From a virus: a stretch of 18,900 nt of DNA. The stretch lies in UHGV virus genome UHGV-1695514, one strand, 5' to 3'. The notes under the pieces were generated by a model. The model had not been told where the DNA came from. It ran no database searches and worked only from the letters and a program-made list of their open reading frames with translations. Within the stretch, counting starts at the first letter, position 1. The number at the start of each line of letters is the position of its first letter. Positions 2,369 to 14,391 of this stretch are shown here, piece by piece. The translations under genes were made by a program, and so were the position numbers.

Positions 2369-2384
2369 AAGCAACTAATATTGT

Positions 2385-2402
2385 ATGTAAGTACTTACCT
2401 AC
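2385..2402. promoter_or_regulatory. intergenic motif with perfect palindrome GTAAGTACTTAC followed by CTAC; candidate operator/promoter element
   Basis: GTAAGTACTTAC at 2387-2398 is a perfect 12-bp palindrome. Sits about 60 bp upstream of the holin-like gene, with an AT-rich TATAAA-like stretch at 2423-2428. Related copies occur in at least six other intergenic regions. Confidence 0.45.
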
Positions 2403-2464
2403 AATTAGTTTCTAATTTATGATATAAATCTGCCATCCGATTTGACTTATTCATGGAGGAAGAC

Positions 2465-2788
2465 ATGTCAAACGAGATGGCAGGCGTGACGCCAGAGCAG
2501 GTGGAGCGCATTGCCGCAATTGTGGCGCGAGAAGTCGTAGGAAAATTAAGTAAGGAGCTTCGAGATGATATTGGCCAGGAGGTCAACGATCAGCTGCGAA
2601 CCTACTTTGGTGATATGACTCCGGCGCAACATAGCATTCAGCATTCCAACCTGGACAAACTTCTTAATCGGCTCGACACGATTTCAAGCGGGTTCTTTGG
2701 AGGCATTATTTCCAAGATTACCTCGTTCCTGATCACCGTGCTGCTTTTGGGTTTGGCCGCTTATGGCGTGAAAAATGGACTGCAATAA
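2465..2788 (+). CDS. putative holin / lysis membrane protein with a single C-terminal transmembrane segment
   Basis: GGAGG at 2455-2459 with ATG at 2465 (alternative in-frame ATG at 2453 has no RBS). Hydrophilic N-terminal part, then hydrophobic ISKITSFLITVLLLGLAAYGV near the C-terminus. First gene of a cluster ending in a spanin pair. Confidence 0.5.
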   Translation: MSNEMAGVTPEQVERIAAIVAREVVGKLSKELRDDIGQEVNDQLRTYFGDMTPAQHSIQHSNLDKLLNRLDTISSGFFGGIISKITSFLITVLLLGLAAYGVKNGLQ

Positions 2789-2801
2789 CAGGAGAACAAG
2801 G

Positions 2802-3494
2802 ATGAGTACTCCAAGAGGCATTCGTAACAATAACCCTGGTAACCTGGATAAGGGGTCGCCGTGGCAAGGGCTAGTAAACAATCCGGCGGAACCGCGGTTC
2901 TGCACTTTTAAAGACCCCGTATGGGGGATTCGAGCACTGACAGTAACGCTCATCACCTACCATGATAAGCGCCGCGCAAAAGACGGTTCCAGCATCGATA
3001 CGATCCGCGAAGTCATCGAGCGTTGGGCGCCGCCACATGAAAACAACACGGCCGCCTATATCAATGAGGTATCTAAAGCCGTAGGCGTGACGCCGGACAT
3101 GATCATCGATCTGCATGACTACAATACTATGCGGCCGCTGGTGGAGGCGATCATTCGTCATGAGAACGGTCGTGGCCCGTTGAAAACACTCAACAGCTGG
3201 TATTCGGCCGAAGTTATTGACGAAGGTATGCGTCGCGCCGGCGTCGTTAAACCGGTAACTGCAGTGAAAGCGGTACCCGTCACGAAAGAAACAGCCGGCG
3301 CAACGGTGACTGCAGGTATCGGTATTGCGCAGCTGGCGGACGTAATGCCGCAGATCTCCGTTGCGATGGATAAGGCCCAGGGACATATCACCAGCGGGGA
3401 TACCGTTCGCATTATCTTCGGTATTGCGACCATTGTTGTCGCCGGCTTTATTGCCTGGGCGCAGATTCGTAAGCATCAGGCAGGAGTGGTGTAA
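2802..3494 (+). CDS. putative endolysin / cell-wall hydrolase (by position in the lysis cassette), with predicted C-terminal membrane helix
   Basis: AGGAG at 2791-2795 with ATG at 2802 (the listed ORF start at 2775 lacks an RBS). N-terminal conserved-looking IRNNNPGNL motif that I cannot assign to a lysozyme family by eye. C-terminal hydrophobic stretch VRIIFGIATIVVAGFIAWAQI. Lies between the holin-like gene and the spanins. Confidence 0.4.
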   Translation: MSTPRGIRNNNPGNLDKGSPWQGLVNNPAEPRFCTFKDPVWGIRALTVTLITYHDKRRAKDGSSIDTIREVIERWAPPHENNTAAYINEVSKAVGVTPDMIIDLHDYNTMRPLVEAIIRHENGRGPLKTLNSWYSAEVIDEGMRRAGVVKPVTAVKAVPVTKETAGATVTAGIGIAQLADVMPQISVAMDKAQGHITSGDTVRIIFGIATIVVAGFIAWAQIRKHQAGVV

Positions 3495-3496
3495 CC

Positions 3497-3748
3497 ATGA
3501 ACGGCAGCCTGTTTTCAAAGGTCAAATCGACCATCATGACTTTGGCTGCCGTCTTCTTTGTGCTCGTTGGGGCGTACACCTGGGGTGGACGCGCTGCCCG
3601 GCGGGCCATGGAGGAAAAGGCGCAGAGAGAAACCAACAAACGGCTTCAAGGCACAGTGGATGTGAAAAATGAGACGATTAATGAAGTCAGGACTAAGGAT
3701 GCTTCTGCCGTTCATCGCGAGCTTCGCGATAAGTGGATGCGTGATTAA
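3497..3748 (+). CDS. i-spanin (Rz-like inner-membrane spanin subunit)
   Basis: 83 aa; N-terminal TM helix (IMTLAAVFFVLVGAYTW) followed by a charged, helical periplasmic domain. Its 3' end is overlapped in the +1 frame by a lipoprotein gene. Confidence 0.75.
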   Translation: MNGSLFSKVKSTIMTLAAVFFVLVGAYTWGGRAARRAMEEKAQRETNKRLQGTVDVKNETINEVRTKDASAVHRELRDKWMRD

Positions 3749-3890
3749 ACCTCAGACCGTGGGCGTACAATTCTGCGATGGGGCAAACCCTATCTACATC
3801 AGCAAGGACGACGCCCTGACAGAAGAAACTGAGAGAGAAATCCTGATCCACAACACGCTGGGTGAAAGAATTTGTGATTGGGGGCGGTAG
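3669..3890 (+). CDS. o-spanin (Rz1-like outer-membrane lipoprotein), overlapping the 3' end of the i-spanin gene
   Basis: Signal peptide with lipobox AISGC (MRRLMKSGLRMLLPFIASFAISGC); short mature protein with additional Cys residues; overlapped architecture. Start could also be the in-frame ATG at 3681 or 3699. Confidence 0.7.
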   Translation: MRRLMKSGLRMLLPFIASFAISGCVIKPQTVGVQFCDGANPIYISKDDALTEETEREILIHNTLGERICDWGR

Positions 3891-3908
3891 CATTTTATGC
3901 CCCGCCTC

Positions 3909-3960
3909 AGAGGATACGCTGCGTTACACTACCTAAACTATGGCGTATCCTCTTTTCTTC
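3909..3960 (+). terminator. hairpin with 11-bp perfect stem followed by a T-rich tract; probable terminator of the lysis cassette
   Basis: AGAGGATACGC (3909-3919) pairs with GCGTATCCTCT (3943-3953), loop 23 nt, then TTTTCTTC. The loop is longer than in a textbook intrinsic terminator. Confidence 0.45.
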
Positions 3961-4019
3961 ACATCTGTCGTCAGAGCTTGATATTCACGGCATCTAACTG
4001 TGCTTCATTCAACCTCATG

Positions 4020-4078
4020 TTGAATGATCCTGCTTAATGATGTAGATTTGATATGACTACAGTCATAACGTGTAGTCA
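4020..4078 (+). promoter_or_regulatory. candidate sigma70-type promoter with a hairpin/operator overlapping the predicted transcription start
   Basis: TTGAAT (4020-4025), 17-bp spacer, TAGATT (4043-4048). Immediately downstream is the inverted repeat TGACTACA (4054-4061) / TGTAGTCA (4071-4078), and a second palindrome GCTACG-CATACT-CGTAGC at about 4084-4101. Confidence 0.3.
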
Positions 4079-4164
4079 CATTCAAGCTACGCATACTCGT
4101 AGCCTCTAAACCCCACAGGGGGTCGCCGCAACGACAGCATTGTCTCAACGGCTAAGGTGGAAAC

Positions 4165-4563
4165 ATGCATAACGCACTTAACTCATCACGTTCTATTCAA
4201 ACGATTAGAGACTGTACCAACATGATCGCATCGGTTCCTTTGCGTCATTGGGATGACTCGCTCCAAATCCGAGAAATGGGCACACCAGGTGAACTTAAGG
4301 ATCAGCGTTTCATCATTACACTGAAGAGTGACGTGGAAGCAGGTAGCTTTACTATCAAATTATTTGCTGAGTTGATGGTTCTGAACAACCGTTTGCGCTT
4401 CCTCGTGAAGCCCGAAAAACAGTTTCCAGAAGTCGTTTACTGCGAAAGGCAAATTTTTTCGGATATCGAGAGTGAAATTGCTACTTTTGTTAAGGACAAG
4501 TACAGTGTAGATGTTAGTCTTGTCCGTACAGATAAATCAATGGACATGCGGCTTGCAAACTAG
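4165..4563 (+). CDS. hypothetical protein (132 aa), first gene of a low-GC two-gene island
   Basis: ATG 4165 preceded by AAGGTGG (4153-4159). No recognisable motif. The stop TAG 4561-4563 directly abuts the ATG of the next gene. Confidence 0.7.
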   Translation: MHNALNSSRSIQTIRDCTNMIASVPLRHWDDSLQIREMGTPGELKDQRFIITLKSDVEAGSFTIKLFAELMVLNNRLRFLVKPEKQFPEVVYCERQIFSDIESEIATFVKDKYSVDVSLVRTDKSMDMRLAN

Positions 4564-5352
4564 ATGGCACCTTCACTAATCGCGGATTACAAAAAGGTAC
4601 TCTCAGATTTCCCAGATCATGATAAACGCGAAAAAATCCGAGTCGGCTATACGGTTGGCTCGGATTTTTCTGTTTTGCGCCTTACTGAGTGGGCGTTGAC
4701 GGGGTCAAGTTACCCATATTGCCTCACTGTATCTGTGGTAGGGGCGCCAGATAATGAGTGGTTGCAAGAAATTGCAATAGAAATGGATGCCTCTGATAAT
4801 GATGAAGAGGAAATCATTGGCTACATACGTGCTTTAGTCGGTGCTGAACCTGAAGATGATGATGGCATCCAGATCGCTAGATTTGTATACAGAGATTTTC
4901 TGTTTCGGTCACAACAAGGTCACCACAGCGGAGTGCAGATTAAAGGTGCTTTTGTTGATCCTTCCAAGGAAAAGAAAGGCCTTGCCCGCTTAGTATATGG
5001 CTTCCTCCTTAACTGGCACGAGCATATCATCAGCGATGACCATCAGACGGTTTATGGGGCTAAGATATGGGCCGTTGGGATGTTAAAAGTAGGTAGAGTG
5101 CAAGTCTACGATAACATAAAAAGTGATTTTGTAGATGTGCTTACTGAAGGCGGTATCGGTATAAATGGATTCAAGCCTTGGGATGCTATGATGCTCAAAG
5201 AAGCACAGCTAAAGCACTGGAACCCTATGGCGATTAGTATAGACCCATCATCGCAGATTCTAGCCATCATTTCAGCGTCTGACAGGCATCAGTATAATGG
5301 TGTTACTGTTTTTAACAGAGTCGTTAGACGAAGGCTCAGAGTAACGAGATAA
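4564..5352 (+). CDS. hypothetical protein (262 aa), second gene of the low-GC island
   Basis: ATG immediately follows the upstream stop (probably co-translated). Acidic stretch (DASDNDEEEI, EPEDDDG). No recognisable catalytic motif. Followed by an intrinsic terminator. Confidence 0.7.
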   Translation: MAPSLIADYKKVLSDFPDHDKREKIRVGYTVGSDFSVLRLTEWALTGSSYPYCLTVSVVGAPDNEWLQEIAIEMDASDNDEEEIIGYIRALVGAEPEDDDGIQIARFVYRDFLFRSQQGHHSGVQIKGAFVDPSKEKKGLARLVYGFLLNWHEHIISDDHQTVYGAKIWAVGMLKVGRVQVYDNIKSDFVDVLTEGGIGINGFKPWDAMMLKEAQLKHWNPMAISIDPSSQILAIISASDRHQYNGVTVFNRVVRRRLRVTR

Positions 5353-5373
5353 ACCCGCTGCGGCGGGTTTTTT
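5353..5373 (+). terminator. rho-independent terminator
   Basis: CCCGC-TGCG-GCGGG hairpin (5354-5367) followed by TTTTTT (5368-5373), directly after the stop at 5350-5352. Confidence 0.8.
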
Positions 5374-5456
5374 GTTGCCATCCTTTAATTAACTCCAAAG
5401 TACCTACCATTTCACCTTTACACCGCAGCCGTAGGCATTTAGGCTATATCGCATAT

Positions 5457-5474
5457 AAGAAAACAAGTTGTTTC
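5457..5474. promoter_or_regulatory. palindromic operator-like element AGAAAACAAGTTGTTTC upstream of parA
   Basis: AAACAA-G-TTGTTT palindrome at 5461-5473, ending 35 bp before the parA start. A near-identical element (AGAAAACAACTTGTTT) precedes the helicase gene. Confidence 0.45.
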
Positions 5475-5508
5475 ATACGACGATAAATCACACGTAGGGA
5501 TATCACGA

Positions 5509-6174
5509 ATGACCCAGATCATTGTGGTGGGCGGCACCAAGGGTGGCCCAGGCAAATCGACTGTTGCTCAGCAAATTGCAGCCTGTCTGAAAATCAAAAA
5601 GAAAAAGAAAGTCCAGATCACTGATATCGACATCCAGCGCACCACGACAGGGTGGTGTGAAGACCGCCGGCACAATGAAGAACTGGAGCTGATCCCGTTC
5701 GCCTATGTCCAGGATGACATCATCAAACACATCACTTCGCTTCGCGGCCGTTTCGATTACGTCGTCGTTGACGCTGGTGGTTTCGACTCCGAAATTCAGC
5801 GCCAGGCTATGCTGATGGCCAACGTGATCCTTATCCCGCTTCGCCCGAAACGTCGCGATCTGAAATCCTTGCGTGACATCGACCCCATCGTCGACAGCGT
5901 TAGCAGCGTGAATGACCAAATCAAAATCCGTGCTGTAATGAACCAGTGCCCGTCTCTGCCTTCCCAGGCTGCGCGCATTATCGCTGCAAAAGAAATTGTC
6001 GAAACCTTTGGCATCGAGGCGGTACCGGTGAATCTTTACAACCGCAACGTCTATGACGATGCCGAAGAGGCGGGCCGTTCCATCTTTGAGATGACCGGAG
6101 CCGAACGCGACAAAAAGGCTGAGGCCGAGATTGAAGCATTAGTAGAATACGTAATGACCTTGGAGGGTGAATAA
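5509..6174 (+). CDS. parA: ParA-family partition ATPase, small type Ib (ParF-like, no N-terminal HTH)
   Basis: Deviant Walker A GGTKGGPGKST near the N-terminus, Walker B-like FDYVVVDAGG, overall ParF-like layout, 221 aa. RBS TAGGGA 8 nt upstream. Stop overlaps the start of the next gene. Confidence 0.8.
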   Translation: MTQIIVVGGTKGGPGKSTVAQQIAACLKIKKKKKVQITDIDIQRTTTGWCEDRRHNEELELIPFAYVQDDIIKHITSLRGRFDYVVVDAGGFDSEIQRQAMLMANVILIPLRPKRRDLKSLRDIDPIVDSVSSVNDQIKIRAVMNQCPSLPSQAARIIAAKEIVETFGIEAVPVNLYNRNVYDDAEEAGRSIFEMTGAERDKKAEAEIEALVEYVMTLEGE

Positions 6175-6536
6175 TGTCCATGAAAATGGGTGATCTGGCA
6201 AAACGTCCGGCTGCGGAAGCTGCTGCGCCTAAAAGCAGCACCCCGATGCGCCAGCCTGTCCGTCCACAAGGCCGTCCAACACGTGGCAAAGAGAAAATCA
6301 AAAGCCGCACGATGTCTCTTGAAGACGAGTATTTCGAATTACTGGAGATGATGAAGTTCATCCCTCGCTTCGAGAAGTTCACCCGTTCTGATGTGATACG
6401 TGCAGCCATTTTCCATCTGGCAGAGAAGTCCCCGCAGGAAATAGAGGACATCGTAAAGATGAACGAGGCGATCACCGCAGCCGATGTGACGATGCGTACC
6501 GATGAAATCAAGCGTGAGCTGATGAAGAAAGGTTAA
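6174..6536 (+). CDS. small basic partition/centromere-binding partner (ParG-like, putative ribbon-helix-helix)
   Basis: ATG overlaps the parA stop (TAATG). Basic Pro/Arg-rich N-terminal tail, then an RHH-like segment (KSRTMSLEDEYFELLEMMKF...SDVIRAAIFHL). Position matches the second gene of type Ib par operons. Confidence 0.55.
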   Translation: MSMKMGDLAKRPAAEAAAPKSSTPMRQPVRPQGRPTRGKEKIKSRTMSLEDEYFELLEMMKFIPRFEKFTRSDVIRAAIFHLAEKSPQEIEDIVKMNEAITAADVTMRTDEIKRELMKKG

Positions 6537-6581
6537 ATAAGAGGCGTCGAAAGATGCCTTTAACTCAAAAGGACTTTGTTT

Positions 6582-7340
6582 GTGCTGTACAAATACGTAG
6601 GGCATGAAGACCCAAACGAATTAATCAAAATTCTTAAATTCTTCATCGAAGATGGAACCATCCGAGCCACCCGGCCACACGACTTCAATGATCCTGCCGA
6701 GTTCAAAGCCAAATTTAGTTTTGACGCCACGATCCAAGAGAAGCTTGTCCGATATCATGAGATGTGGCCTGGCAAAAGCGACGATGACGGTGAGAACTGG
6801 TTAAGAGGGCGAACCAAAAACGCCGAAGAGTTTGACGCCTATATGCTGCGCGGAAATCTGCTTTTGGATACTGGTGTGATATGCCTCACCAGAACTGACA
6901 CTAATTACCTGATGTGGTCGCATTACGCCAGCTCCCACTCTGGATTTTGCATAGGGTTTGATGACGCTATTGTGGAAGCGCTGGATGACCGACACACAGC
7001 GTTAAACGGTGACGTGGAGTACGTGAAATCGCCGCCTGAAGTGAACTTCTATACCGCTGATGTGTACGACATTGTCAGAGCCATCTTTCTGCACAAGGGT
7101 GAGAGCTGGAAGTACGAAGAAGAGTTCCGGATTATCTCTGAGCTGCCAGGGCTTAAGAAGTTGGACACCTCGCTCATCAAAGAGATTTCTATCGGATGCA
7201 AACCCTATCCAGAGCTGGAAAGTTTTGCCCGTGAACTGCTGGACAGCAATCTGGCCGTGTACAAAATGCTTTGCCCTACCGACTCGTACCAACTGAAGCG
7301 TGTGGAGCTGGACAAGAACCTTTCTTTTCAAGGTTACTAG
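6582..7340 (+). CDS. DUF2971-like protein of unknown function
   Basis: N-terminal LYKY motif, FNDP-AEF, and a central MWSHYA...GFCIGFD block resemble my recollection of the DUF2971 family. Start is ambiguous: GTG 6582 (AAGGA 9 nt upstream) or TTG 6576. Lower GC than flanking genes. Confidence 0.5.
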   Translation: MLYKYVGHEDPNELIKILKFFIEDGTIRATRPHDFNDPAEFKAKFSFDATIQEKLVRYHEMWPGKSDDDGENWLRGRTKNAEEFDAYMLRGNLLLDTGVICLTRTDTNYLMWSHYASSHSGFCIGFDDAIVEALDDRHTALNGDVEYVKSPPEVNFYTADVYDIVRAIFLHKGESWKYEEEFRIISELPGLKKLDTSLIKEISIGCKPYPELESFARELLDSNLAVYKMLCPTDSYQLKRVELDKNLSFQGY

Positions 7341-7361
7341 TTCTGGCAGCTTCAATTAAGA

Positions 7362-7427
7362 ACCTGCTTCTGTATATATAAATACTAAGTTACTTATTAT
7401 TATTTATACGGAAGCAGGTCTTTTTCT
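7362..7427 (+). terminator. 9-bp perfect stem enclosing a 40-nt AT-rich loop, followed by CTTTTTCT; terminator-like or regulatory hairpin
   Basis: ACCTGCTTC (7362-7370) pairs with GAAGCAGGT (7411-7419). The loop contains the palindrome TAAGTTACTTA (7386-7396). Confidence 0.4.
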
Positions 7428-7501
7428 ATGCCAACTTCCCAGACACATTCCCTTCCGTTTCCACTTCCAAAAAACATCTCCAGTCGCTATGATCTGTCAA
7501 A

Positions 7502-7519
7502 TAGTAAGTAAGTAGTTAC
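7502..7519. promoter_or_regulatory. TAGTAAGTAAGTAGTTAC motif; candidate operator/promoter element
   Basis: GTAAGTAAGTAGTTAC at 7504-7519, 15 bp upstream of the ATG at 7534. Its exact reverse complement occurs at 14320-14335 upstream of phoH. Confidence 0.45.
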
Positions 7520-7533
7520 CTATCGGTGAGGGC

Positions 7534-8259
7534 ATGAGCCAGATCTTTTTTGACACCATAAACAACGGCCAGTACGACTTCATGACAGAGTGGGACACGG
7601 TCGCCATGGACAAGTGGGTTGCGGAAAACATCGGTCTTTCACGATGCCAGGGGGAGGCTGAGCTCTTTGATACAAAGTGGTTTGACTATCGCGACATGCA
7701 CCCGCTGATGGCAACCTGTCTGTTCACCGAAGCCTATAAGCGCGCATACTCACAGATCATGCTGTCTCATGGCCGCGAGCATTTCGAGACGGCGCCATTC
7801 AGCACTGGTCTGAAACGCCTGCCTTACCAAGAGCTTTCGGCGGTGAACAAAACCTCTCTCTGGAAAGCTCGCCAGTTTGCAGATCGGTATTGCTGTTCTT
7901 ATGACTATTTTATATCAACTGTTCTCTCTGCAGCTGCACGCCGGCTCTGGGACAAATTACCTCGCCCTCAGCATCTTTGGCAGCCAGAACTGATTGAGAT
8001 CTTCGAAAGCAAACTCGCCAGTCGTGCGGGAACGCGTCTGGATGACTCTGTAGTGAGTTTTAAGCACTTAGGAGACATGCAGCATGACCCAATTCAGGAA
8101 CGTTACTTTGAATGGGTTCTGGAGCGTTTGAAGCACATCACCCGTGATAAGCGTATCCGCACCATCTTCTCTGCTGTCTGGTTGATGGAGCTGGTGCCTG
8201 AGCGCGTTATCTATGCCCATTACCCGGAAGAACTGGAAGAAGCACGGCGACTGTGTTGA
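7534..8259 (+). CDS. hypothetical protein (241 aa)
   Basis: Long ORF with uniform coding-like composition; no recognisable motif. Confidence 0.65.
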   Translation: MSQIFFDTINNGQYDFMTEWDTVAMDKWVAENIGLSRCQGEAELFDTKWFDYRDMHPLMATCLFTEAYKRAYSQIMLSHGREHFETAPFSTGLKRLPYQELSAVNKTSLWKARQFADRYCCSYDYFISTVLSAAARRLWDKLPRPQHLWQPELIEIFESKLASRAGTRLDDSVVSFKHLGDMQHDPIQERYFEWVLERLKHITRDKRIRTIFSAVWLMELVPERVIYAHYPEELEEARRLC

Positions 8260-8282
8260 TTGCCTGTTCCATATTTTTACGA

Positions 8283-8300
8283 TTAGAAAACAACTTGTTT
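8283..8300. promoter_or_regulatory. palindromic operator-like element AGAAAACAACTTGTTT upstream of the helicase gene
   Basis: AAACAA-C-TTGTTT palindrome at 8288-8300, 23 bp before the ATG at 8324. Matches the element upstream of parA at 17 of 18 positions. Confidence 0.45.
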
Positions 8301-8323
8301 AAGCACCAAAGGATATCAAACAC

Positions 8324-9664
8324 ATGACCGAACTTTGCCACACGGGACGAGGGTTGTCTGAAGAGTTCGACGACGACTTCCAGAATCGTCTGGCGGCGTA
8401 TTTTTGCCGCGATCATGAGTTTCTGACTCGTGCCGGCGATCTGGTTGCCCCCAACCAATTCTCCAATGCGGCGAACGCCATACTGGTGAACATGGTATCG
8501 GGCTATTTCAGAATGTATAAGAGCGCGCCGTCATCGGCGGCCATCCTCGATATGTTGAAGCGTGCTAAACGCGATAAGACGATCAGAGAAGAGATGTTCC
8601 CGGATGTTGTGGCGGCGTTTAAGCGGGTGCTCTCGGAAAAACTCTCTGATACGGCTTACATGGTCGACCAGGTCGCGACGTTCGCTAAAAGTGTAGCGTT
8701 CGACGATGCGTTGATTAAAGCGGCCGAGATGAAGGAGAAGGGCGACTTCCAGGGAGCGATGGCCATCATGGCCAAAGTGCAGCAGATCGGTTCTAACGAA
8801 GCGACGGGCATTTATGACTATTACGCCTCTGCAGCGGAACGTTACAAGGCCCGTGAATATGAAGCCTCTGATGATTACGTGCCGAACAGCATCACCACCG
8901 GTCTTCCGCTGCTGGATCGCATGCTTTATCAAAAAGGTTGGGCGAAACGTGAGATGGTGCTCTTCATGGGGTTTGCGAAATCAGGTAAATCGACAGCGAT
9001 GGGGGAGTTCTCCATTAACGCAACGCTGGCCGGCTACAACGTTTTGTATCTTTCTCTCGAAGTGCATACCTCGATTCTCTCCGATCGCTTCGATGCACGG
9101 CTGTCTGAAACGGAGATGTCAAAGCTGGTAGAGCAGCGTGACGACGTTCACCGGAAACTCGCGGAGCTTGGCGCGACGAAAGGGGTGGGGAATCTCTGGG
9201 TGGTTGAGCGCCCGTCAGGAAGCATGTCGCCTGCAGATTTGGATCGTATGCTCAATAGCATGAAAGCGAATGGCATGATCCCGGATATGGTGGTGGTCGA
9301 CTATGCGGACTTGATGCGTGCCAGTTACGACCTCCGTGACGACCGGGCGAACATCCGTTCTATCTACACCGATCTGCGTGCTCTCTACGATAAGCACAAC
9401 GTTGCAGGAATCACGGCATCCCAGACCAACCGTGAAGGTGGCTCATCCGAAGTGGCCACCATGATGCACGCCGCAGACAATATCGAAAAAGTCCGTATCG
9501 CCGACTTAGTCATCACTATCAACAAGACTGAGGAGGAAGAAGCCAAAGGTGAAGCACGACTCTATTTTGCTGGTTCCCGTAACCAGAAGGGCGGGGTGAG
9601 TATTCGCGTTAAGCAGAATCTCGAACAGATGCGCTTCATCGAGCGGATCATGGAAGTTCTTTAA
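8324..9664 (+). CDS. DnaB-like replicative DNA helicase (RecA-fold ATPase)
   Basis: Walker A GFAKSGKST, Walker B-like MVVVDYADLM, helicase-like C-terminal region (ITASQTNREG); 446 aa; adjacent to a primase gene. Confidence 0.75.
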   Translation: MTELCHTGRGLSEEFDDDFQNRLAAYFCRDHEFLTRAGDLVAPNQFSNAANAILVNMVSGYFRMYKSAPSSAAILDMLKRAKRDKTIREEMFPDVVAAFKRVLSEKLSDTAYMVDQVATFAKSVAFDDALIKAAEMKEKGDFQGAMAIMAKVQQIGSNEATGIYDYYASAAERYKAREYEASDDYVPNSITTGLPLLDRMLYQKGWAKREMVLFMGFAKSGKSTAMGEFSINATLAGYNVLYLSLEVHTSILSDRFDARLSETEMSKLVEQRDDVHRKLAELGATKGVGNLWVVERPSGSMSPADLDRMLNSMKANGMIPDMVVVDYADLMRASYDLRDDRANIRSIYTDLRALYDKHNVAGITASQTNREGGSSEVATMMHAADNIEKVRIADLVITINKTEEEEAKGEARLYFAGSRNQKGGVSIRVKQNLEQMRFIERIMEVL

Positions 9665-9671
9665 AAAAATA

Positions 9672-9712
9672 GGCGTGGGGCAAAGACGGATAACAGCCCC
9701 ACGCCCTTAAAA
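9672..9712. terminator. 9-bp GC-rich hairpin flanked by A-run upstream and weak T-tract downstream; possible bidirectional terminator
   Basis: GGCGTGGGG (9672-9680) pairs with CCCCACGCC (9697-9705), loop 16 nt. The downstream U-tract on the + strand is weak (CTTAAAAATT); on the - strand it is followed by a T-run. Confidence 0.4.
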
Positions 9713-9746
9713 ATTACCTTTTGGTTAATCACAAAAGGAAAAACAC

Positions 9747-9815
9747 ATGAGCCTTTATGGTATTCAAAAAACGCGGCTTATCAAGATATTGCCGTTTAAA
9801 AACTGCGGTAAATGA
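9747..9815 (+). CDS. possible 22-codon upstream ORF translationally coupled to the primase gene
   Basis: AAGGA (9735-9739) 7 nt before ATG 9747; encodes MSLYGIQKTRLIKILPFKNCGK. Its TGA (9813-9815) overlaps the primase ATG (9812-9814), which itself has no obvious RBS. Confidence 0.25.
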   Translation: MSLYGIQKTRLIKILPFKNCGK

Positions 9816-10933
9816 CAATGAGTGACCTCAAAGAGTTACTGTCCGAGCTGGATTTCGAACAATGGCTGGATATGGAAGGCATCATCTATCGTCGCGGCGG
9901 TGTAAGCGCCCGCGGCCGCGAAGTGAATATCAAAGAATGTCCGGTATGTGGAAGCACAAACTGGAAGGTCTATTTCAACCTGACCAACAACGTCGGGAAA
10001 TGCTTCGCCGGCGATCACCCAGAAGAAATTCAATTTAATAAGCTGGTTTTCCTCAAACACTACAGCGGTAAGTCTCGTCGTGCCTTTGAGGAGTACGTAC
10101 ATAACGCACTCCTGTCTCAAGGTTGGGCGCCAAAAAAAGAAGAGGTTGTGCTGGCCAGTGCTGTGGAACTTGAAGGCCCGGTGGCTTTACCGCGGCATTA
10201 TGAACTGCCAATTGACGGTCGGCTGCCGGACTATCTTGTTGAGCGGAACATTACCCCGGAGCTGGCCAAATATTTTGACCTGCGTTACTGCGTCGAGGGA
10301 AAACATGCTTATGTCGACCCATATACCGATCAGGTAAAAGGGCAGGCATTCGATATGCGCATCCTGATACCGATTTACGATCTGAATGGGGTGATGAAGA
10401 CATTCCAGGGGCGTGACGTCACCGGCGCAGCAGAACGTCGATATCTCTTTCCAATGCAGCTGCCGGCATCCGGGAGGTTTCTCTACAATGGACATAACGC
10501 AGTTGGTAAGCAAACAGTCGTCGTCTGTGAGGGGGCTTTCGATGTCATGGGGGTTAAGCGCGCCATATTCGACGAGGAAACACTCCGGGACTACGTAGAG
10601 CCCATTGGCACGTTCGGGATGCATCTGTCCGGAAACACGACTGTAGACGCAGAAGACCAGCTGGGCGCGTTTCTGTCGTTAAAGGCTGATGGTCTGCGAA
10701 ACGTCATCATGATGTGGGATAGCGAGAAGCAAGCGATCCGAAACACAATGGCGGCCGCCAGACGATTAGCCAGTATAGGGTTAAATGTGAAAATAGCCTG
10801 TCTTGGAGAAGAAGGGCTAGATCCCGGGGAGGCCACCCAGGAACAAATTCTCAAAGCCTACTATCGTGCAAAACCCTACTCTAAGCAACTGGAGCTGCAG
10901 AGCAAGGTTCTCGGTATTAGTGCATTTAATTAG
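9812..10933 (+). CDS. DNA primase (zinc-ribbon plus TOPRIM, DnaG/T7 gp4-primase-like)
   Basis: Zinc-binding-type CPVCGS...(14)...C-x4-H near the N-terminus; TOPRIM signature VVCEGAFDVMG (E-G-x-x-D) and a downstream acidic MWDSE motif; located next to the helicase gene. Confidence 0.7.
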   Translation: MTMSDLKELLSELDFEQWLDMEGIIYRRGGVSARGREVNIKECPVCGSTNWKVYFNLTNNVGKCFAGDHPEEIQFNKLVFLKHYSGKSRRAFEEYVHNALLSQGWAPKKEEVVLASAVELEGPVALPRHYELPIDGRLPDYLVERNITPELAKYFDLRYCVEGKHAYVDPYTDQVKGQAFDMRILIPIYDLNGVMKTFQGRDVTGAAERRYLFPMQLPASGRFLYNGHNAVGKQTVVVCEGAFDVMGVKRAIFDEETLRDYVEPIGTFGMHLSGNTTVDAEDQLGAFLSLKADGLRNVIMMWDSEKQAIRNTMAAARRLASIGLNVKIACLGEEGLDPGEATQEQILKAYYRAKPYSKQLELQSKVLGISAFN

Positions 10934-11053
10934 TTCGACTCATGGCTGTAGTTCCATATCCGTGTCGGAAATACCATAATTTTTTTATGGATGTAGGTAT
11001 CTACTTAAATATTTTAATGTAATAAATAACACTTTGGTTATGGAGGACATCAC

Positions 11054-11842
11054 ATGAAAAAAGGTATCGAACAGGCAGTTTTAGAGATGATCAAGAAGTC
11101 AGGCGTAGAGCTTGGCGAGGGAGAACTGGAGAGCATCATCGATGCCTCATTCAACACGGCATCAGAGCACATATCGAATGCGCTATCCTGCATTCCTCTC
11201 AAAGAAGGGGCGACACATACGTCGGTGTTAGTGTGGTACGCAAAGACGCCTGAAATGCCCGGTACTGTTCAAAAGCGTGTAGCTCTGGTTGCGTTCATCG
11301 TCCCGTCGTTTGAGACCGGCATTGGGCCAGTCGCGCGTTTTGGCGCCTGGTATGACGACAAAATCATCTTCTCAAACTGCTACCAGATGGAAAGCAGGGA
11401 AATGCTTGAGAATAGCGTTAACGTGACTCTAAGAGCCGTAGAAAGCAAATGCGAGACAGTAGGAGAGGCTTTCGTCAGCGTCATGACTTCTCCCGATGTT
11501 GAAAGGCGCCATGTAGATCTGGTAGCACCACCAGGCTTGTTGGAAATGATTGTCTCTGGAGATTACAACAAGGCTATAGCGCGTGTTCGTGAGCTGGACT
11601 ATGGGCGTATCTGCGACTTGTGTCGTAGTGATCTGGATTTAATCAATGTGATCGTTGAGGCTGGCCGCGTCTGTGATGGGGTGTTGGCACAATACGCAAG
11701 TAAGATCAGTCGTTTGGCCAATGAAATGCCTATGCTGATTCAGGAAGCCAAATCCCACGCCGTTCATGCCGCAAACGACCTGCTAACCCCTTATCGATAC
11801 GAAGCCGCAAGTGACAAGATGACCGGCTGGGCCACCTGGTAA
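11054..11842 (+). CDS. hypothetical protein (262 aa)
   Basis: GGAGGA (11042-11047) 6 nt before ATG 11054; coding-like composition; no recognisable motif. Upstream AT-rich region contains a GTAGGTATCTACTTAAAT motif. Confidence 0.7.
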   Translation: MKKGIEQAVLEMIKKSGVELGEGELESIIDASFNTASEHISNALSCIPLKEGATHTSVLVWYAKTPEMPGTVQKRVALVAFIVPSFETGIGPVARFGAWYDDKIIFSNCYQMESREMLENSVNVTLRAVESKCETVGEAFVSVMTSPDVERRHVDLVAPPGLLEMIVSGDYNKAIARVRELDYGRICDLCRSDLDLINVIVEAGRVCDGVLAQYASKISRLANEMPMLIQEAKSHAVHAANDLLTPYRYEAASDKMTGWATW

Positions 11843-11887
11843 GCCGTGACTATGTACTGTGTCCCCGTACAGAGTTATTTAAACTGA

Positions 11888-11904
11888 TTAGTAAGTAAGT
11901 ACAA
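11888..11904. promoter_or_regulatory. TAGTAAGTAAGTACAAG motif; candidate operator/promoter element
   Basis: Direct GTAA repeats (GTAAGTAAGTA at 11890-11900), 21 bp upstream of the ATG at 11922; same family as the 7502 and 14320 motifs. Confidence 0.4.
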
Positions 11905-11921
11905 GATTATCATTTAGAGAA

Positions 11922-12389
11922 ATGGCTACCAAAACTGACTTATCAAAAATCCCTTCGATCTCTGGACTCAACGGCTACTCGCTGCGTTGCCCGGAAGTGA
12001 AGCTTAACGGACATGACTCGTACTGCAGCTACACCGTCTGTCAGCACACGATCCTTGCCTTCAAAGAGAAGCGACTGCCGGCGTCATCGTTCACCTCCTG
12101 TGCGAACGCCATTTCGGCCGGAAAATGCCAGGCGCTGGAAATGATGGTGGAGGAAATCCGGCAAGGTGAGTCGCTGTATTTCGTCGATATGCCGGCGCTC
12201 ATTGAAGAGGTGGAGGAAAGAAACCGAACAGCGAGAACCCTGCAGCCGAAGAGAGGCAGTGCATCTATCTACAGTGGAATTAAAGGGAAGCGCCAATCTT
12301 CGACCGTTGCTGAAACTGGCAGACTGCCCGATGCCAGCGAGATTTATTCAGAACTTATCAAAGAAACCTTAAAGGAGAAGACCGACTAA
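11922..12389 (+). CDS. hypothetical Cys-containing protein (155 aa)
   Basis: First gene of a run of four genes with overlapping start/stop codons; five Cys in the N-terminal half (possible metal site); no recognisable family. Confidence 0.6.
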   Translation: MATKTDLSKIPSISGLNGYSLRCPEVKLNGHDSYCSYTVCQHTILAFKEKRLPASSFTSCANAISAGKCQALEMMVEEIRQGESLYFVDMPALIEEVEERNRTARTLQPKRGSASIYSGIKGKRQSSTVAETGRLPDASEIYSELIKETLKEKTD

Positions 12390-12637
12390 TGGAGAAGCTG
12401 ATCGCGCTTAAACATAAGCTGGACGCCATTAAAGCAATGGGAACGAACGCCAAGAAAGAGGCGCTGGCCAGTATGAATGACTTCGAACAAAGAATGGTGT
12501 CACTCATGCTGAACCCATTTGTTCGTTTCGGGGTGAAGAAATACAAAGTGGCCGATCCACTTAGCAAGTCCGTACCCAGTGATCAGAAGGCGATAGAGCT
12601 GCTGGAGCAACTGATTGAAGCAGGAGAATACTCATGA
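12389..12637 (+). CDS. hypothetical protein (82 aa)
   Basis: ATG overlaps the upstream stop (TAATG); helical, charged composition. Confidence 0.55.
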   Translation: MEKLIALKHKLDAIKAMGTNAKKEALASMNDFEQRMVSLMLNPFVRFGVKKYKVADPLSKSVPSDQKAIELLEQLIEAGEYS

Positions 12638-12786
12638 TTCCATACATCATATTGACTTTTTCTGGAGGCGTCGCCCTTGGCTTCATCATCTGTCATGACT
12701 TGATCAAGCAGGAACTGAAGACCAAAACACTACGTATCGGTAAGCGGGTATATCGCGTCGTTCACGAGACAGGGGTATCAAAATGA
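12634..12786 (+). CDS. possible small membrane protein (50 aa), below the ORF-track length cut-off
   Basis: ATG 12634 overlaps the stop of the upstream gene (ATGA). Encodes MIPYIILTFSGGVALGFIICHDL... with one N-terminal TM helix. Its stop (12784-12786) overlaps the ATG of the next gene (12783). Confidence 0.35.
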   Translation: MIPYIILTFSGGVALGFIICHDLIKQELKTKTLRIGKRVYRVVHETGVSK

Positions 12787-13082
12787 GCAATCTAACCTCG
12801 TTTGACTGGTGGATAGGCTTGTACTTTGTGGCTTCTGGTGTCGCAGTAGCTTTTACGATTGGCCAGTCCCTGGTAAAGCTACTGCTTTTAAGATTCGCCA
12901 ATCGCAAGCGTATCGATGACACGCTTTGGTGCCTTGGATCTCTACTTGAACAGCGTTACGGCGAGCTGAAGGAAGGTGCAACCCTTTGCATAAAGGCAAA
13001 ACGTTTCACGGCCACAATCCAACGGACGCAGGATGAGAAGCCAGTACTGATCAAAAAAGGAGCAAGCGAACGCATGAAATAA
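12783..13082 (+). CDS. hypothetical small membrane protein (99 aa)
   Basis: N-terminal hydrophobic helix (WWIGLYFVASGVAVAFTIGQSLV), then a basic tail; last gene of the overlapping run. Confidence 0.55.
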   Translation: MSNLTSFDWWIGLYFVASGVAVAFTIGQSLVKLLLLRFANRKRIDDTLWCLGSLLEQRYGELKEGATLCIKAKRFTATIQRTQDEKPVLIKKGASERMK

Positions 13083-13108
13083 TAGGTAAGTGTTTACTTA
13101 TTAAGTTG
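13083..13108. promoter_or_regulatory. GGTAAGTGTTTACTTATTAAG motif (TAAGT-N4-ACTTA inverted half-sites)
   Basis: Same half-sites as the 2387 and 7386 palindromes; lies at the start of the long non-coding tRNA region. Confidence 0.35.
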
Positions 13109-13472
13109 ATATAAATATGATTGACTTGTTTTCGTTGAGACGCGACTGTTTGAACGTTTAAAGATAACTGCAAACGACAATCAGTATCTGGCAGTAGCCT
13201 AAAAAGCCAAACACCAGCGAGGTCAGTTTCCAGCCTCGTCACCGAAATGGGACACACTAAGCGAGTGTGATTGCAAAACGCAGGTAGGGCATCTGGTTAA
13301 CCAGTGCCCTTACCGATGAGGTAACAGAATGGGCGGTTGGGTTTTATGTCCAACACATCCCGGCTCCCAAAGGCCCGACCGTCTATCCTGTTACGTCATT
13401 TCTGTTACTTATGTCGTTTAGTTTTGGGTTAAAAATGGCGACGTAACCCGGCTGGTTAGGTGAGCCAGCACG

Positions 13473-13566
13473 CAACGTTGAGACCACTGGTTTTTGCATC
13501 ACAGAGGCAGAGCCGGCAGACATGTAGGGCCAAGTACATTAATCCGTCCCAGTGGTCTCAACGTTG
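13473..13566. repeat. 18-bp perfect inverted repeat enclosing a 58-nt loop (structured RNA or DNA hairpin)
   Basis: CAACGTTGAGACCACTGG (13473-13490) and its exact reverse complement CCAGTGGTCTCAACGTTG (13549-13566). Confidence 0.7.
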
Positions 13567-13809
13567 TGGTCACGGATTCATTATCCTTCTGGTTATAGCC
13601 ATTGTTGTCACTGCCCCGTGGCCACAACGATTAAATGATTCCATACATCTAATTAGATCTGAATGAAAACTCTCCTCAGCCCTCGGAGAGTATTTGAAGA
13701 TCTTGGCTTGTAAGCGTTTGGTGAACACGTAAAGCACAAGTGGCAGGAAACGGTAGGACTGCTGCGAACGACACCGGTGAATCGACAGCGGCTGACGGTG
13801 TCAACCTTA

Positions 13810-13884
13810 GATGGTGTAGCTCAGTGGTAGAGCGGTTGACTGTTAATCAGCTGGTCGGTGGTTCGAATCCCCCCACCATCGCCA
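13810..13884 (+). tRNA. tRNA-Asn (anticodon GTT)
   Basis: Manual cloverleaf: 7-bp acceptor GATGGTG/CACCATC, U8-A9, D-arm GCTC-AGTGGTA-GAGC, anticodon arm GTTGA-CTGTTAA-TCAGC (anticodon at 13842-13844), T-loop TTCGAAT, discriminator G and encoded CCA (13882-13884). One U-C mismatch in the T-stem. Confidence 0.7.
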
Positions 13885-13973
13885 CAACGGTAAGGGTATT
13901 TGGACGACAGCAAGGAAGGCGCGCTCTTTGGCTGTTCGCGACGGATCTGATTCCCTGAATGCCCTTACCGTTG
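13883..13973. repeat. 14-bp perfect inverted repeat enclosing a 63-nt loop, starting at the 3' end of tRNA-Asn
   Basis: ACCAACGGTAAGGG-type arm at 13883-13896 pairs with 13960-13973 (CCCTTACCGTTGTG); the loop contains further short complementary segments. Confidence 0.65.
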
Positions 13974-14041
13974 TGATGAATTGCAGCTCGTTGAAGCAAC
14001 CAGAAGATAAGCATCTGGCGTCACAACGAACGGAGGATAGA

Positions 14042-14128
14042 GGGCATGGCGCCCAAGCGGTCTTGAAAACCGTCCCATTGCGAAAGCGATGATGGTTCGA
14101 TTCCATTATCCTCCGCCAACACAGCGTT
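14042..14128 (+). tRNA. tRNA-Ser (anticodon TGA), class II with long variable arm
   Basis: 7-bp acceptor GGAGGAT/ATCCTCC, anticodon arm GCGGT-CTTGAAA-ACCGT (anticodon at 14074-14076), variable arm with GAAA loop, T-loop TTCGATT, discriminator G and encoded CCA (14126-14128); 87 nt. The D-arm is atypical in my hand fold. Confidence 0.65.
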
Positions 14129-14129
14129 G

Positions 14130-14210
14130 AGCGGTTTGGTTTTGTTTTTCTTATCGAAAAGACTCCGCCTGTCACCATGGCCAGACCGCTCAACGCTGTG
14201 ATAGACATTA
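14130..14210. repeat. 16-bp perfect inverted repeat enclosing a 49-nt loop, starting 2 nt after tRNA-Ser
   Basis: CACAGCGTTGAGCGGT (14130-14145) pairs with ACCGCTCAACGCTGTG (14195-14210). Confidence 0.7.
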
Positions 14211-14273
14211 CGGCAGACGTTCTTTAACCATAGCTTCTAGCATCTTAGCAACACTTTTTTCAGCGCAAAATCC

Positions 14274-14297
14274 AAAGGGGCTTCGGCCCCTTTTCTT
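14274..14297 (+). terminator. rho-independent terminator
   Basis: AAAGGGGC-TTCG-GCCCCTTTT hairpin with a following T-tract; closes the tRNA region. Confidence 0.7.
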
Positions 14298-14319
14298 GCA
14301 TAAACGCCCTTGTCGTTAT

Positions 14320-14335
14320 GTAACTACTTACTTAC
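14320..14335. promoter_or_regulatory. GTAACTACTTACTTAC, exact reverse complement of the 7504-7519 motif
   Basis: 16-nt exact inverted match to GTAAGTAAGTAGTTAC, located 56 bp upstream of the phoH start. Confidence 0.45.
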
Positions 14336-14391
14336 TTTTGTGTTAACTTTTAGGTATAGTTCGTCTGGTTACTCACTTGAAAGGACTCAAT

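Follow-up and report, generated by a model that had tools for sequence, protein, structure and literature searches.

The window analysed here is the whole 18,900-nucleotide (nt) stretch of the virus genome UHGV-1695514, and it carries the end of a tail-fibre gene, a lysis cassette, a parA-DUF2971 operon, genes for a dnaB-like helicase and a primase, a unit of non-coding sequence and transfer RNA (tRNA) genes, phoH, and a group II intron near its right end. The gaps between these genes contain repeated copies of one quasi-palindromic motif centred on GTAAGTACTTAC. We investigated this motif by comparative sequence analysis, from which all evidence on the sites is drawn, and our reading, held at somewhat better than even, is that it serves as the operator of a dispersed silencing network belonging to the phage-plasmid itself, bound by a small XRE-type repressor.

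Megablast searches placed the window in the SSU5 group of siphovirus phage-plasmids and identified it as a Klebsiella element: K. pneumoniae plasmids of ~110 kb match it at 97-99% identity over 77-96% of its length, with lower identity to Salmonella phage SSU5 (~83%) and Escherichia phage Cyrano (~78%). The complete genomes compared were NZ_CP055511.1 (Klebsiella, 115,055 bp, the closest complete relative, referred to below as the Klebsiella relative), SSU5, Cyrano and the more distant Cronobacter plasmid NZ_CP017663.1. Distant relatives were recovered by a portal-protein scan of representative genomes and a candidate-repressor scan of plasmids; IMG/VR searches with single repressor proteins recovered only close relatives.

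Copies of the motif in the window

The consensus, (t)aATA[A/G]-GTAAGTACTTAC-[C/T]TAT(ca), is a quasi-palindrome of 20-24 bp. Scoring with a weight matrix of 24 columns, derived from the sites of two complete relatives, revealed six strong sites (19.9-31.7 bits) and one weak site (13.5 bits) in the window (Table 1), whereas 200 dinucleotide-type shuffles gave a mean of 0.01 sites with a threshold of 18 bits and 0.07 with a threshold of 12 bits. Because the matrix was trained on orthologous sites, the window matches are obtained partly by construction, and the shuffle control is the real test.

The original prediction had described at least seven recurrent copies, in a palindromic form, GTAAGTACTTAC, and a direct form, TAAGTAAGTA. 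All of its quoted strings occur in the window, six at the coordinates it gave and two displaced by 2 nt (TAGTAAGTAAGTACAAG lies at 11890-11906 and GGTAAGTGTTTACTTATTAAG at 13085-13105), and its 16-mer at 7504-7519 does have an exact reverse complement at 14320-14335. Six copies stood up to the shuffle control, the weak one is doubtful, and a proposed copy 'AAGTACCTAC' at 5398-5407, which scores -5.5 bits, was excluded from the family. Both forms are real, but they are one motif in one register once aligned: the direct form consists of the core preceded by the left arm ATAA, within which the TAA stop codon of the upstream gene is often found.

Table 1 Sites of the motif (24-column matrix) and further features of the window
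Feature	Core	Span	Strand	Score (bits)	Context
Near-perfect palindrome ttgtatGTAAGTACTTACctacaa	2387-2398	2381..2404	.	28.4/27.4 on the two strands	18 nt past the tail-fibre stop codon, 5' of the lysis cassette; right arm TTACCT (2395-2400) and TATGAT (2418-2423) make a sigma-70-like -35/17/-10 pair, as read from the sequence; orthologues in the Klebsiella relative, SSU5 and Cyrano
Weak degenerate copy, membership doubtful	7378-7389	7372..7395	-	13.5	In the loop of the terminator hairpin ~7358-7419
Site tagtaaGTAAGTAGTTACctatcg	7508-7519	7502..7525	+	31.5	3' of the parA operon and its terminator hairpin; ends 9 nt 5' of the ATG at 7534; kept in the Klebsiella relative, SSU5 (33598) and Cyrano (31294)
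Inverted weaker site atgtagGTATCTACTTAAatattt	10997-11008	10991..11014	-	20.1 on the - strand	Between the primase stop codon and the gene starting at 11054; same site in the Klebsiella relative at r87002
Half-site-only copy tagtaaGTAAGTACAAGAttatca	11895-11906	11889..11912	+	19.9	Ends 10 nt 5' of the ATG at 11922; lacks the right arm yet kept in Cyrano at 35605, reading tgatagGTAAGTACAAGAttattt; RNA fold -0.8 kcal/mol, z +1.25, i.e. none
Site taatagGTAAGTGTTTACttatta	13086-13097	13080..13103	+	31.7	Begins 3 nt past a stop codon; overlaps the -35 of the predicted promoter TTTACT-17-TATGAT (13093-13121), which heads the non-coding and tRNA unit
Inverted site cgttatGTAACTACTTACttactt	14320-14331	14314..14337	-	27.1 on the - strand	Upstream of phoH; includes the exact reverse complement of 7504-7519; flank TTACTT (14332-14337) and TATAGT (14355-14360) make a -35/17/-10 pair, as read from the sequence
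Terminator hairpin CCTGCTTCTGTATATAT...ATATACGGAAGCAGG		~7358-7419			Long, with a T-run; -25.4 kcal/mol, z -7.05; ends the parA-DUF2971 operon
GAAAACAAnTTGTTTAA repeat, first copy		5459-5475			Upstream of parA
GAAAACAAnTTGTTTAA repeat, second copy		8286-8302			Upstream of the dnaB-like helicase gene
Non-coding and tRNA unit		13104-14320			~700 nt without a convincing open reading frame, then the two tRNA genes
tRNA-Asn		13810-13884
tRNA-Ser		14032-14118
Group II intron		17721-17946		186.6 (Rfam RF02005)	Followed by a reverse-transcriptase/maturase open reading frame running past the window end (18900)

Hairpins of the type found at the end of the parA operon occur in three copies per genome in the relatives, and their loop always holds a degenerate copy of the GTAAGTA motif. 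The long leader of the unit at 13104-14320 may encode a non-coding RNA.

Number and placement of sites in complete genomes

At a threshold of at least 12 bits, we found 29 sites in the Klebsiella relative, 28 in SSU5 and ~30 in Cyrano (28-31 overall), whereas shuffled genomes gave a mean of 0.35 sites per genome at the same threshold. The string TAAGTAAGT occurs 14 times where 0.9 occurrences are expected, motif fragments rank first in an unbiased comparison of intergenic with coding 8-mers, and GTAAGTAC is present in 16 copies in 10.8 kb of intergenic DNA compared with four copies in 103 kb of coding DNA. Strong intergenic enrichment of the motif 8-mers in a complete relative, and retention of the motif at orthologous positions in close relatives, were both checks that the original prediction had put forward, and both turned out in its favour.

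Nearly all sites are intergenic or lie at stop codons, and every lytic module is represented, early and late alike. In the Klebsiella relative they flank sbcCD, nrdAB, the thymidylate synthase, adenine methylase and RNase H genes and the ParB-like late operon, as well as the portal/scaffold/capsid genes, the tail genes, the lysis cassette, the helicase-primase block, the tRNA unit, phoH, the cobST-dnaE block, and uvsY with the SSB gene. The longest stretches without a site are the giant tail gene, an island of restriction-modification genes and insertion sequences, and an opposite-strand helicase operon; in Cyrano the moron region, which holds genes reported as lysogen-expressed (PMC9928086), is additionally free of sites. 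Orientation is mildly biased (23 sites on the plus and six on the minus strand in the Klebsiella relative), and copies inverted relative to transcription make up six of the 29 sites there and two of the six strong copies in the window. A distribution that covers all lytic modules, leaves out accessory and lysogen-expressed regions, and includes one site after the parA operon terminator fits a silencer.

We also considered that the copies might have no dedicated function, being AT-rich intergenic sequence or relics of recombination at module boundaries left by mosaicism. Intergenic regions are indeed AT-rich and several copies overlap TAA stop codons; however, shuffling yields less than one site where 28-31 are observed, and orthologous copies are kept in genomes of 75-83% identity although their flanks diverge.

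Lineage-specific palindromes and co-variation

Comparison of progressively more distant relatives revealed six palindrome types at the same intergenic positions, the relatives near the window carrying the unchanged motif at orthologous positions. Type A, ATAgGTAAGTACTTACcTAT (example site TAATAGGTAAGTACTTACCTATTA), is that of the window and its close relatives, and type B, ATAGGTAG-N4-CTACCTAT (example TAATAGGTAGTTAACTACCTATTA), that of the Cronobacter plasmid NZ_CP017663.1, a metagenomic contig and IMG/VR contigs. Type C, ATAAGTCAC-NN-GTGACTTAT, was found in a marine metagenome-assembled genome with 58% portal identity; type D, GATAAGTA-NN-TACTTATC, in another Klebsiella plasmid; type E, TCAGTCAGTACTGACTGA, in Acinetobacter plasmids; and type F, TCAGTAAA-NN-TTTACTGA, in an Aeromonas plasmid. 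NZ_CP017663 holds 26 type-B sites compared with 0-1 in shuffles, and type-C copies are located where the terminase and portal genes meet, between the capsid gene and a terminator, and where the helicase and ParB-like genes diverge. Between types the outer positions are common, while the inner positions are altered symmetrically.

The change extends to a copy inside a coding sequence. A site within the portal gene, ~100 nt before its stop codon (NZ_CP055511.1 ~51352 in reverse-complement coordinates, NZ_CP017663.1 ~86525), encodes ENKSVLTY (GAA AAT AAG TCA GTA CTT ACT TAT) in type A and ENRLSTTY (GAA AAT AGG TTG TCA ACT ACC TAT) in the type-B genome, so that the peptide shifts from KSVLT to RLSTT along with the motif type.

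Copies agree within a genome and change jointly between lineages; the reader is therefore a co-evolving factor encoded by the element, and we regard a sequence-specific, phage-encoded DNA-binding protein as its highly probable identity. The original prediction had proposed a binding-site family of one phage-encoded regulator coordinating several modules, and the 28-31 copies across the lytic modules, together with the symmetric, lineage-specific changes, bear this out. A coordinated change of all copies in other lineages, the coding copy included and at an amino-acid cost, is the further observation that speaks against sites without function; enrichment and co-variation effectively refute that explanation, which we rate as exceedingly improbable.

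Promoter, terminator and RNA features at the sites

The sites could instead be bound by a phage activator and mark a lytic promoter class, with a palindrome ~18-22 bp upstream of the start in place of the -35 element. The Lpa-dependent late promoters of P1 consist of an inverted repeat near -22 plus a -10, and Mu C and Mor offer a further model of this kind. About 30 sites would be typical for a promoter class in a 110-kb phage, and ~43% of the sites have TATnAT, TACAAT or a similar hexamer 0-2 nt past the core. Such -10-like hexamers, however, flank the core in both directions, on the downstream side in 35 of 81 sites and on the mirrored upstream side in 41. Since the TATnAT-like hexamer is mirrored equally, it is part of a 24-26 bp palindrome and no directional -10, and on the grounds of this symmetry the hexamer directly past the core was rejected as a -10 element. 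The arm TTAC(C/T)T was likewise rejected as a -35, a -10 being present at 16-18 nt in 10 of 81 sites (12%) compared with a local background of 12.6%. In a half-site comparison the upstream half was the better one in 52 sites and the downstream half in 32, with orthologues across three genomes counted separately and thus not independent.

Placement of the sites also bears on an activator. At several orthologous places, for instance following the capsid gene and ahead of nrdA, a stop codon is succeeded by the motif, then by an intrinsic terminator and the next gene; this arrangement recurs in a distant relative (positions 13481 and 17546) and would be senseless for a promoter. Other sites end just 8-16 nt 5' of a start codon, too close to accommodate a leader carrying a Shine-Dalgarno sequence. 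Sites precede genes of the early phase (replication, nucleotide) as well as of the late phase (head, tail, lysis), which is unusual for one activator-dependent temporal class. Lineage-specific co-variation would suit an activator as well as a repressor, and SSU5 retains all sites without a repressor gene, but no activator candidate co-varying with the motif was identified: the 88-amino-acid DNA-binding protein encoded beside the terminase was rejected as reader, its putative recognition segment being identical in types A and B. Taken together, we consider an activator unlikely, although it is the strongest competitor of the silencing model, and the 'phage-specific promoter class' that the original prediction had offered as an alternative was not supported, given the near-symmetric site, the -10-like hexamers on both sides, -10 spacing at background and terminators after some copies.

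Plausible sigma-70 promoters do coincide with a minority of the sites (window 2395-2423, 13093-13121 and 14332-14360), and in the closest relative a TTACCG-16-TATTAT pair is directed away from the repressor gene described below. A sigma-70 consensus scan of the window returned 14 promoter-like and 18 terminator-like matches, both counts at or below shuffle expectation, and was informative for the promoter at 13093-13121 alone. The T4-type late promoter TATAAATA adjoins two window sites, though without genome-wide enrichment, and was rejected (2-5 copies per strand compared with 1.7 expected, no positional pattern).

A second use of a palindrome would be at the RNA level, as a hairpin read by a phage protein in processing, antitermination or translational control. 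The motif is transcribed within operons, some copies lie just before terminators or start codons, and the symmetric changes between lineages preserve pairing potential. A candidate reader would be the FljA-like protein, FljA being an mRNA-binding regulator, and a protein of this family is encoded in type-A and type-B genomes. Against a hairpin, 23% of mirror positions are unable to pair and sense G.U pairs show no clear excess (97, compared with 75 antisense); RNA folds of single sites are weak and inconsistent (-0.8 to -6.9 kcal/mol, z +1.25 to -2.8, mostly within the shuffle range); copies with the left half alone are kept between genomes (window 11895, Cyrano 35605); and six of the 29 copies of the Klebsiella relative run against the direction of transcription. 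Rfam at gathering thresholds gave no match at the sites, its only window matches being a tRNA and the group II intron. The FljA-like (PF03614) regulator was rejected as reader, since it was not found in the examined part of the type-C locus and most sites are not RNA-like. We rate an RNA element as quite improbable. Near-symmetry, absent -10/-35 geometry, inconsistent folding and copies ahead of terminators argue against promoter class and RNA element alike.

The FljA family protein ('repressor of phase-1 flagellin', 176 amino acids) is encoded at NZ_CP055511.1 74392-74922 (PF03614, E=1.5e-72), in the opposite-strand helicase operon, with homologues SSU5_121 and CYRAN_114.

The window and its relatives hold a second, unrelated repeat family, GAAAACAAnTTGTTTAA (Table 1), with ~13-20 copies per genome in four relatives compared with 0-1 in shuffles. 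Between 70 and 90% of the copies are in gene-sense orientation, most end 10-35 nt before an ATG, and many are preceded at a fixed distance by a TGcGATAAT-like extended -10, often after a terminator tail. Unlike the GTAAGTA motif, the GAAAACAAnTTGTTTAA consensus is identical in the type-A and type-B lineages and does not co-vary. This repeat looks like a promoter plus leader or operator cassette, and it fits the idea of a promoter class better than the GTAAGTA motif does. Genome-wide, NZ_CP055511.1 has further over-represented 8-mers, CTGACAGC, CAGCATAC, ACCGCTGA and CGCTGACA, which suggest another repeat, possibly the iterons of the plasmid replicon.

A candidate repressor beside the integrase gene

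In agreement with the original prediction, which had found no identifiable regulator in the window, the best candidate gene lies outside it, ~2 kb past the right end in the closest complete relative and beside the integrase gene. Its product, WP_014342091.1 (126 amino acids), is annotated as a transcriptional/XRE-family regulator and is homologous to CYRAN_45 of Cyrano (56% identity), which has been given as the putative master repressor and is transcribed in Cyrano lysogens (PMC9928086). When six homologues were combined into a profile, it matched PDB entries 2kpj, which carries the annotation of a LexA-type SOS repressor (E=7e-4), and 8bny, an immunity repressor (E=0.049), and the candidate falls in PHROG 8, 2967 and 638, which are transcription-regulator families; these profile matches indicate an XRE/Cro-CI-type helix-turn-helix. 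Pfam and NCBIfam searches of the candidate gave no match, and no S24 autocleavage domain is recognisable.

The gene is divergent from a Cro-sized gene of 70 amino acids (PHROG 2627, no assigned function). A copy of the motif, GGTAAG(T/C)(A/G)CTTACC, stands ~30-35 nt before the repressor start codon in all seven type-A genomes considered (Klebsiella, E. coli twice, Salmonella, Enterobacter, C. sakazakii and Y. pestis pFra), flanked by -10-like hexamers in both directions. Repressor sequences were available for five of the six motif types (A, B, D, E and F), each with a distinct recognition helix: the presumed helix KN(P/A)N(I/N)LSLIK is kept across type-A proteins of 56-100% overall identity, while the others read ENANNLSNIK (B), ENANNISLIK (D), KRPNVLSMIK (E) and NQASMLSMIK (F); type B is represented among others by WP_181954717.1. 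A clear copy upstream of the repressor gene is present in type F as well. In our estimate the XRE-type repressor is somewhat more likely than not the reader of the sites.

In the closest relative the group II intron directly adjoins the integrase gene, the candidate repressor gene being just beyond. Y. pestis pFra/pMT1 has a repressor homologue (66% identical) and type-A sites, one of them before the repressor gene, and the caf1 capsule operon is inserted beside its integrase gene.

Several observations weigh against this assignment and against silencing by the sites. The correlation between repressor and motif is confounded with phylogeny: motif type follows the general divergence of the genomes, the helicase being 93-96% identical to that of the window in type A, 80% in B, 69% in D and 37-39% in E and F. 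Before the repressor gene, types B and E have a weak copy and type D has two half-site-like direct repeats in its place. The immunity region holds one site only, whereas classic CI/Cro switches have several, and a palindrome of 24-26 bp is long for a dimer of a 126-amino-acid helix-turn-helix protein. The roadblock component of the mechanism set out below is argued from site position alone. Lastly, SSU5 lacks the repressor gene yet keeps 28 good sites, a retention that would suit a lytic-phase activator equally.

The SSU5 genome itself offers an account of this last point. At ~42600-42760 it has lost the integrase and repressor block and phoH, which in related plasmids are located between the tRNA and cobT-like genes, and the deletion junction is absent from all 822 matching plasmids, among which flanks of 98-99% identity do occur. 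Given this unique junction, the loss looks recent, and we did not use the absence of the repressor from SSU5 against the repressor; SSU5 is probably a recent repressor-less, obligately lytic derivative.

A different phage protein could read the sites in a mainly non-transcriptional role, by KorB- or ParB-like loading for partition, condensation or packaging. Two proteins with ParB/Srx N-terminal domains, 72-76% identical between types A and B, head the late operon, and a site stands exactly at the divergent junction before the first ParB-like gene in every lineage examined, type C included. The type-C palindrome TCAC..GTGA resembles the cores of parS sites. Centromere-like sites are scattered over the genome of N15, which is likewise a plasmid prophage, and KorB acts on 12 dispersed operators in RK2. 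Alignments of the ParB-like proteins, inspected informally and with no formal search made for either feature, showed neither a helix-turn-helix-like segment nor a stretch specific to motif type. In addition, the partition system of the window itself consists of a small ParA with a 120-amino-acid partner and has a different upstream region, and sites at almost every lytic gene boundary are more easily explained by transcription control. We consider a ParB-like role improbable.

Proposed mechanism of silencing

The comparisons establish that the sites exist, how many there are, where they lie, how symmetric they are and that they co-vary by lineage. From this we infer the identity of the binder, repression as the direction of regulation, and a split between promoter occlusion and roadblock as follows. 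While the element persists as a plasmid prophage, the XRE-type repressor, acting as a dimer, would occupy ~30 sites and keep lytic transcription off; that silencing is the net effect of the sites is, in our estimate from the sequence comparisons, slightly favoured. Where sites lie on -35/-10 pairs, at window 2387 (lysis), 13086 (tRNA) and 14320 (phoH), the bound repressor would occlude the promoter, as it would the divergent early promoter that adjoins its own gene. Copies between co-directional genes, past the parA operon and inside the portal gene may act as roadblocks or insulators against read-through; at the parA operon, the terminator at ~7358-7419 is followed by the site at 7508. The copy before the repressor's own gene would provide autoregulation.

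Comparison with known systems

By analogy, such a system would work most like the stoperator networks of Cluster A phages and the C1 operators of P1, yet it is a member of neither. Cluster A phages have dozens of sites for their repressor (L5 gp71, Bxb1 gp69) throughout the genome, mostly in short intergenic gaps, and the consensus varies between related phages in step with the repressor (PMC6550527; PMC9283540). In D29, a derivative that grows only lytically, part of the repressor gene is gone while the sites are still present (PMC6550527). The likeness lies in more than 20 dispersed sites in lytic operons, often at stop codons, with one at the repressor gene, and SSU5 is the counterpart of D29, its repressor gone and its sites kept. 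Stoperators, however, are asymmetric, strongly oriented sites of 13-14 bp bound by a monomeric two-domain repressor, whereas the sites described here are quasi-palindromes of 20-24 bp with a mild orientation bias, the candidate is a small XRE-type protein with a single helix-turn-helix, the hosts are Gammaproteobacteria and the prophage is a plasmid; a block to elongation is here hinted at by site position.

P1 is an enterobacterial plasmid prophage in which one master repressor, C1, acts on many operators placed before unrelated operons over a genome of ~100 kb. These operators are asymmetric 17-mers, fewer in number and absent from the late structural operons, which use Lpa-dependent promoters. 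The sites of the SSU5 group, in contrast, are palindromic and occur in head, tail and lysis genes as well.

Lambdoid Cro/CI systems share the XRE-type helix-turn-helix, the palindromic operator, a divergent Cro-sized gene with an operator in between, and operator variation of the immunity type. They have ~6 operators clustered at two promoters, unlike the ~30 dispersed sites of 20-26 bp found here, one of which lies in the immunity region, and the candidate, with 126 amino acids, differs further in having no recognisable S24 autocleavage domain. Fold class and palindrome are thus alike, while the number and dispersal of sites are unlike those of ordinary Cro/CI-type repressors. The KorB operators (OB) of RK2 are about a dozen copies of one palindrome that give global repression, partly from a distance. 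They resemble the present sites as a palindrome repeated across a plasmid genome; KorB is a ParB homologue with its own helix-turn-helix, whereas the best candidate here is an XRE-type protein.

For the motif strings and for lysogeny control in the SSU5 group, we found no description in the searchable literature, whose coverage is incomplete. Judged by its sequence features, the system would be best classed as a prophage silencing network of many operators, with a palindromic site that varies between lineages, in a family of phage-plasmids that is widespread in the clinic.

Implications for SSU5-like phage-plasmids

SSU5-like phage-plasmids are widespread in clinical Klebsiella, E. coli, Enterobacter and Salmonella, with hundreds of matching PLSDB records; the group includes the Yersinia pestis pMT1/pFra and S. 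Typhi pHCM2-type plasmids, and some members carry resistance genes. The operator family and the candidate repressor would offer a handle on how ~100 kb of lytic genes stay silent in these elements, and types A to F may allow elements to be sorted into immunity groups by sequence. A wider proposition, which we put forward only tentatively, is that SSU5-like phage-plasmids of Enterobacterales, Acinetobacter and Aeromonas are silenced in a stoperator-like manner by one small XRE-type repressor on ~30 palindromic sites, which stand at almost all gene boundaries of the lytic genome and also within the portal gene, mostly by blocking elongation and less through control of one or two early promoters, and that the types, at least six, correspond to heteroimmune groups. 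To our knowledge, genome-wide silencing by elongation block has so far been described only in actinobacteriophages. If the proposition is true, these elements would represent an independent, symmetric-site version of stoperator-like silencing, and they provide a test of whether genome-wide multi-site silencing arose outside mycobacteriophages. The motif and its repressor may also serve as parts for engineering these plasmids or for curing them.

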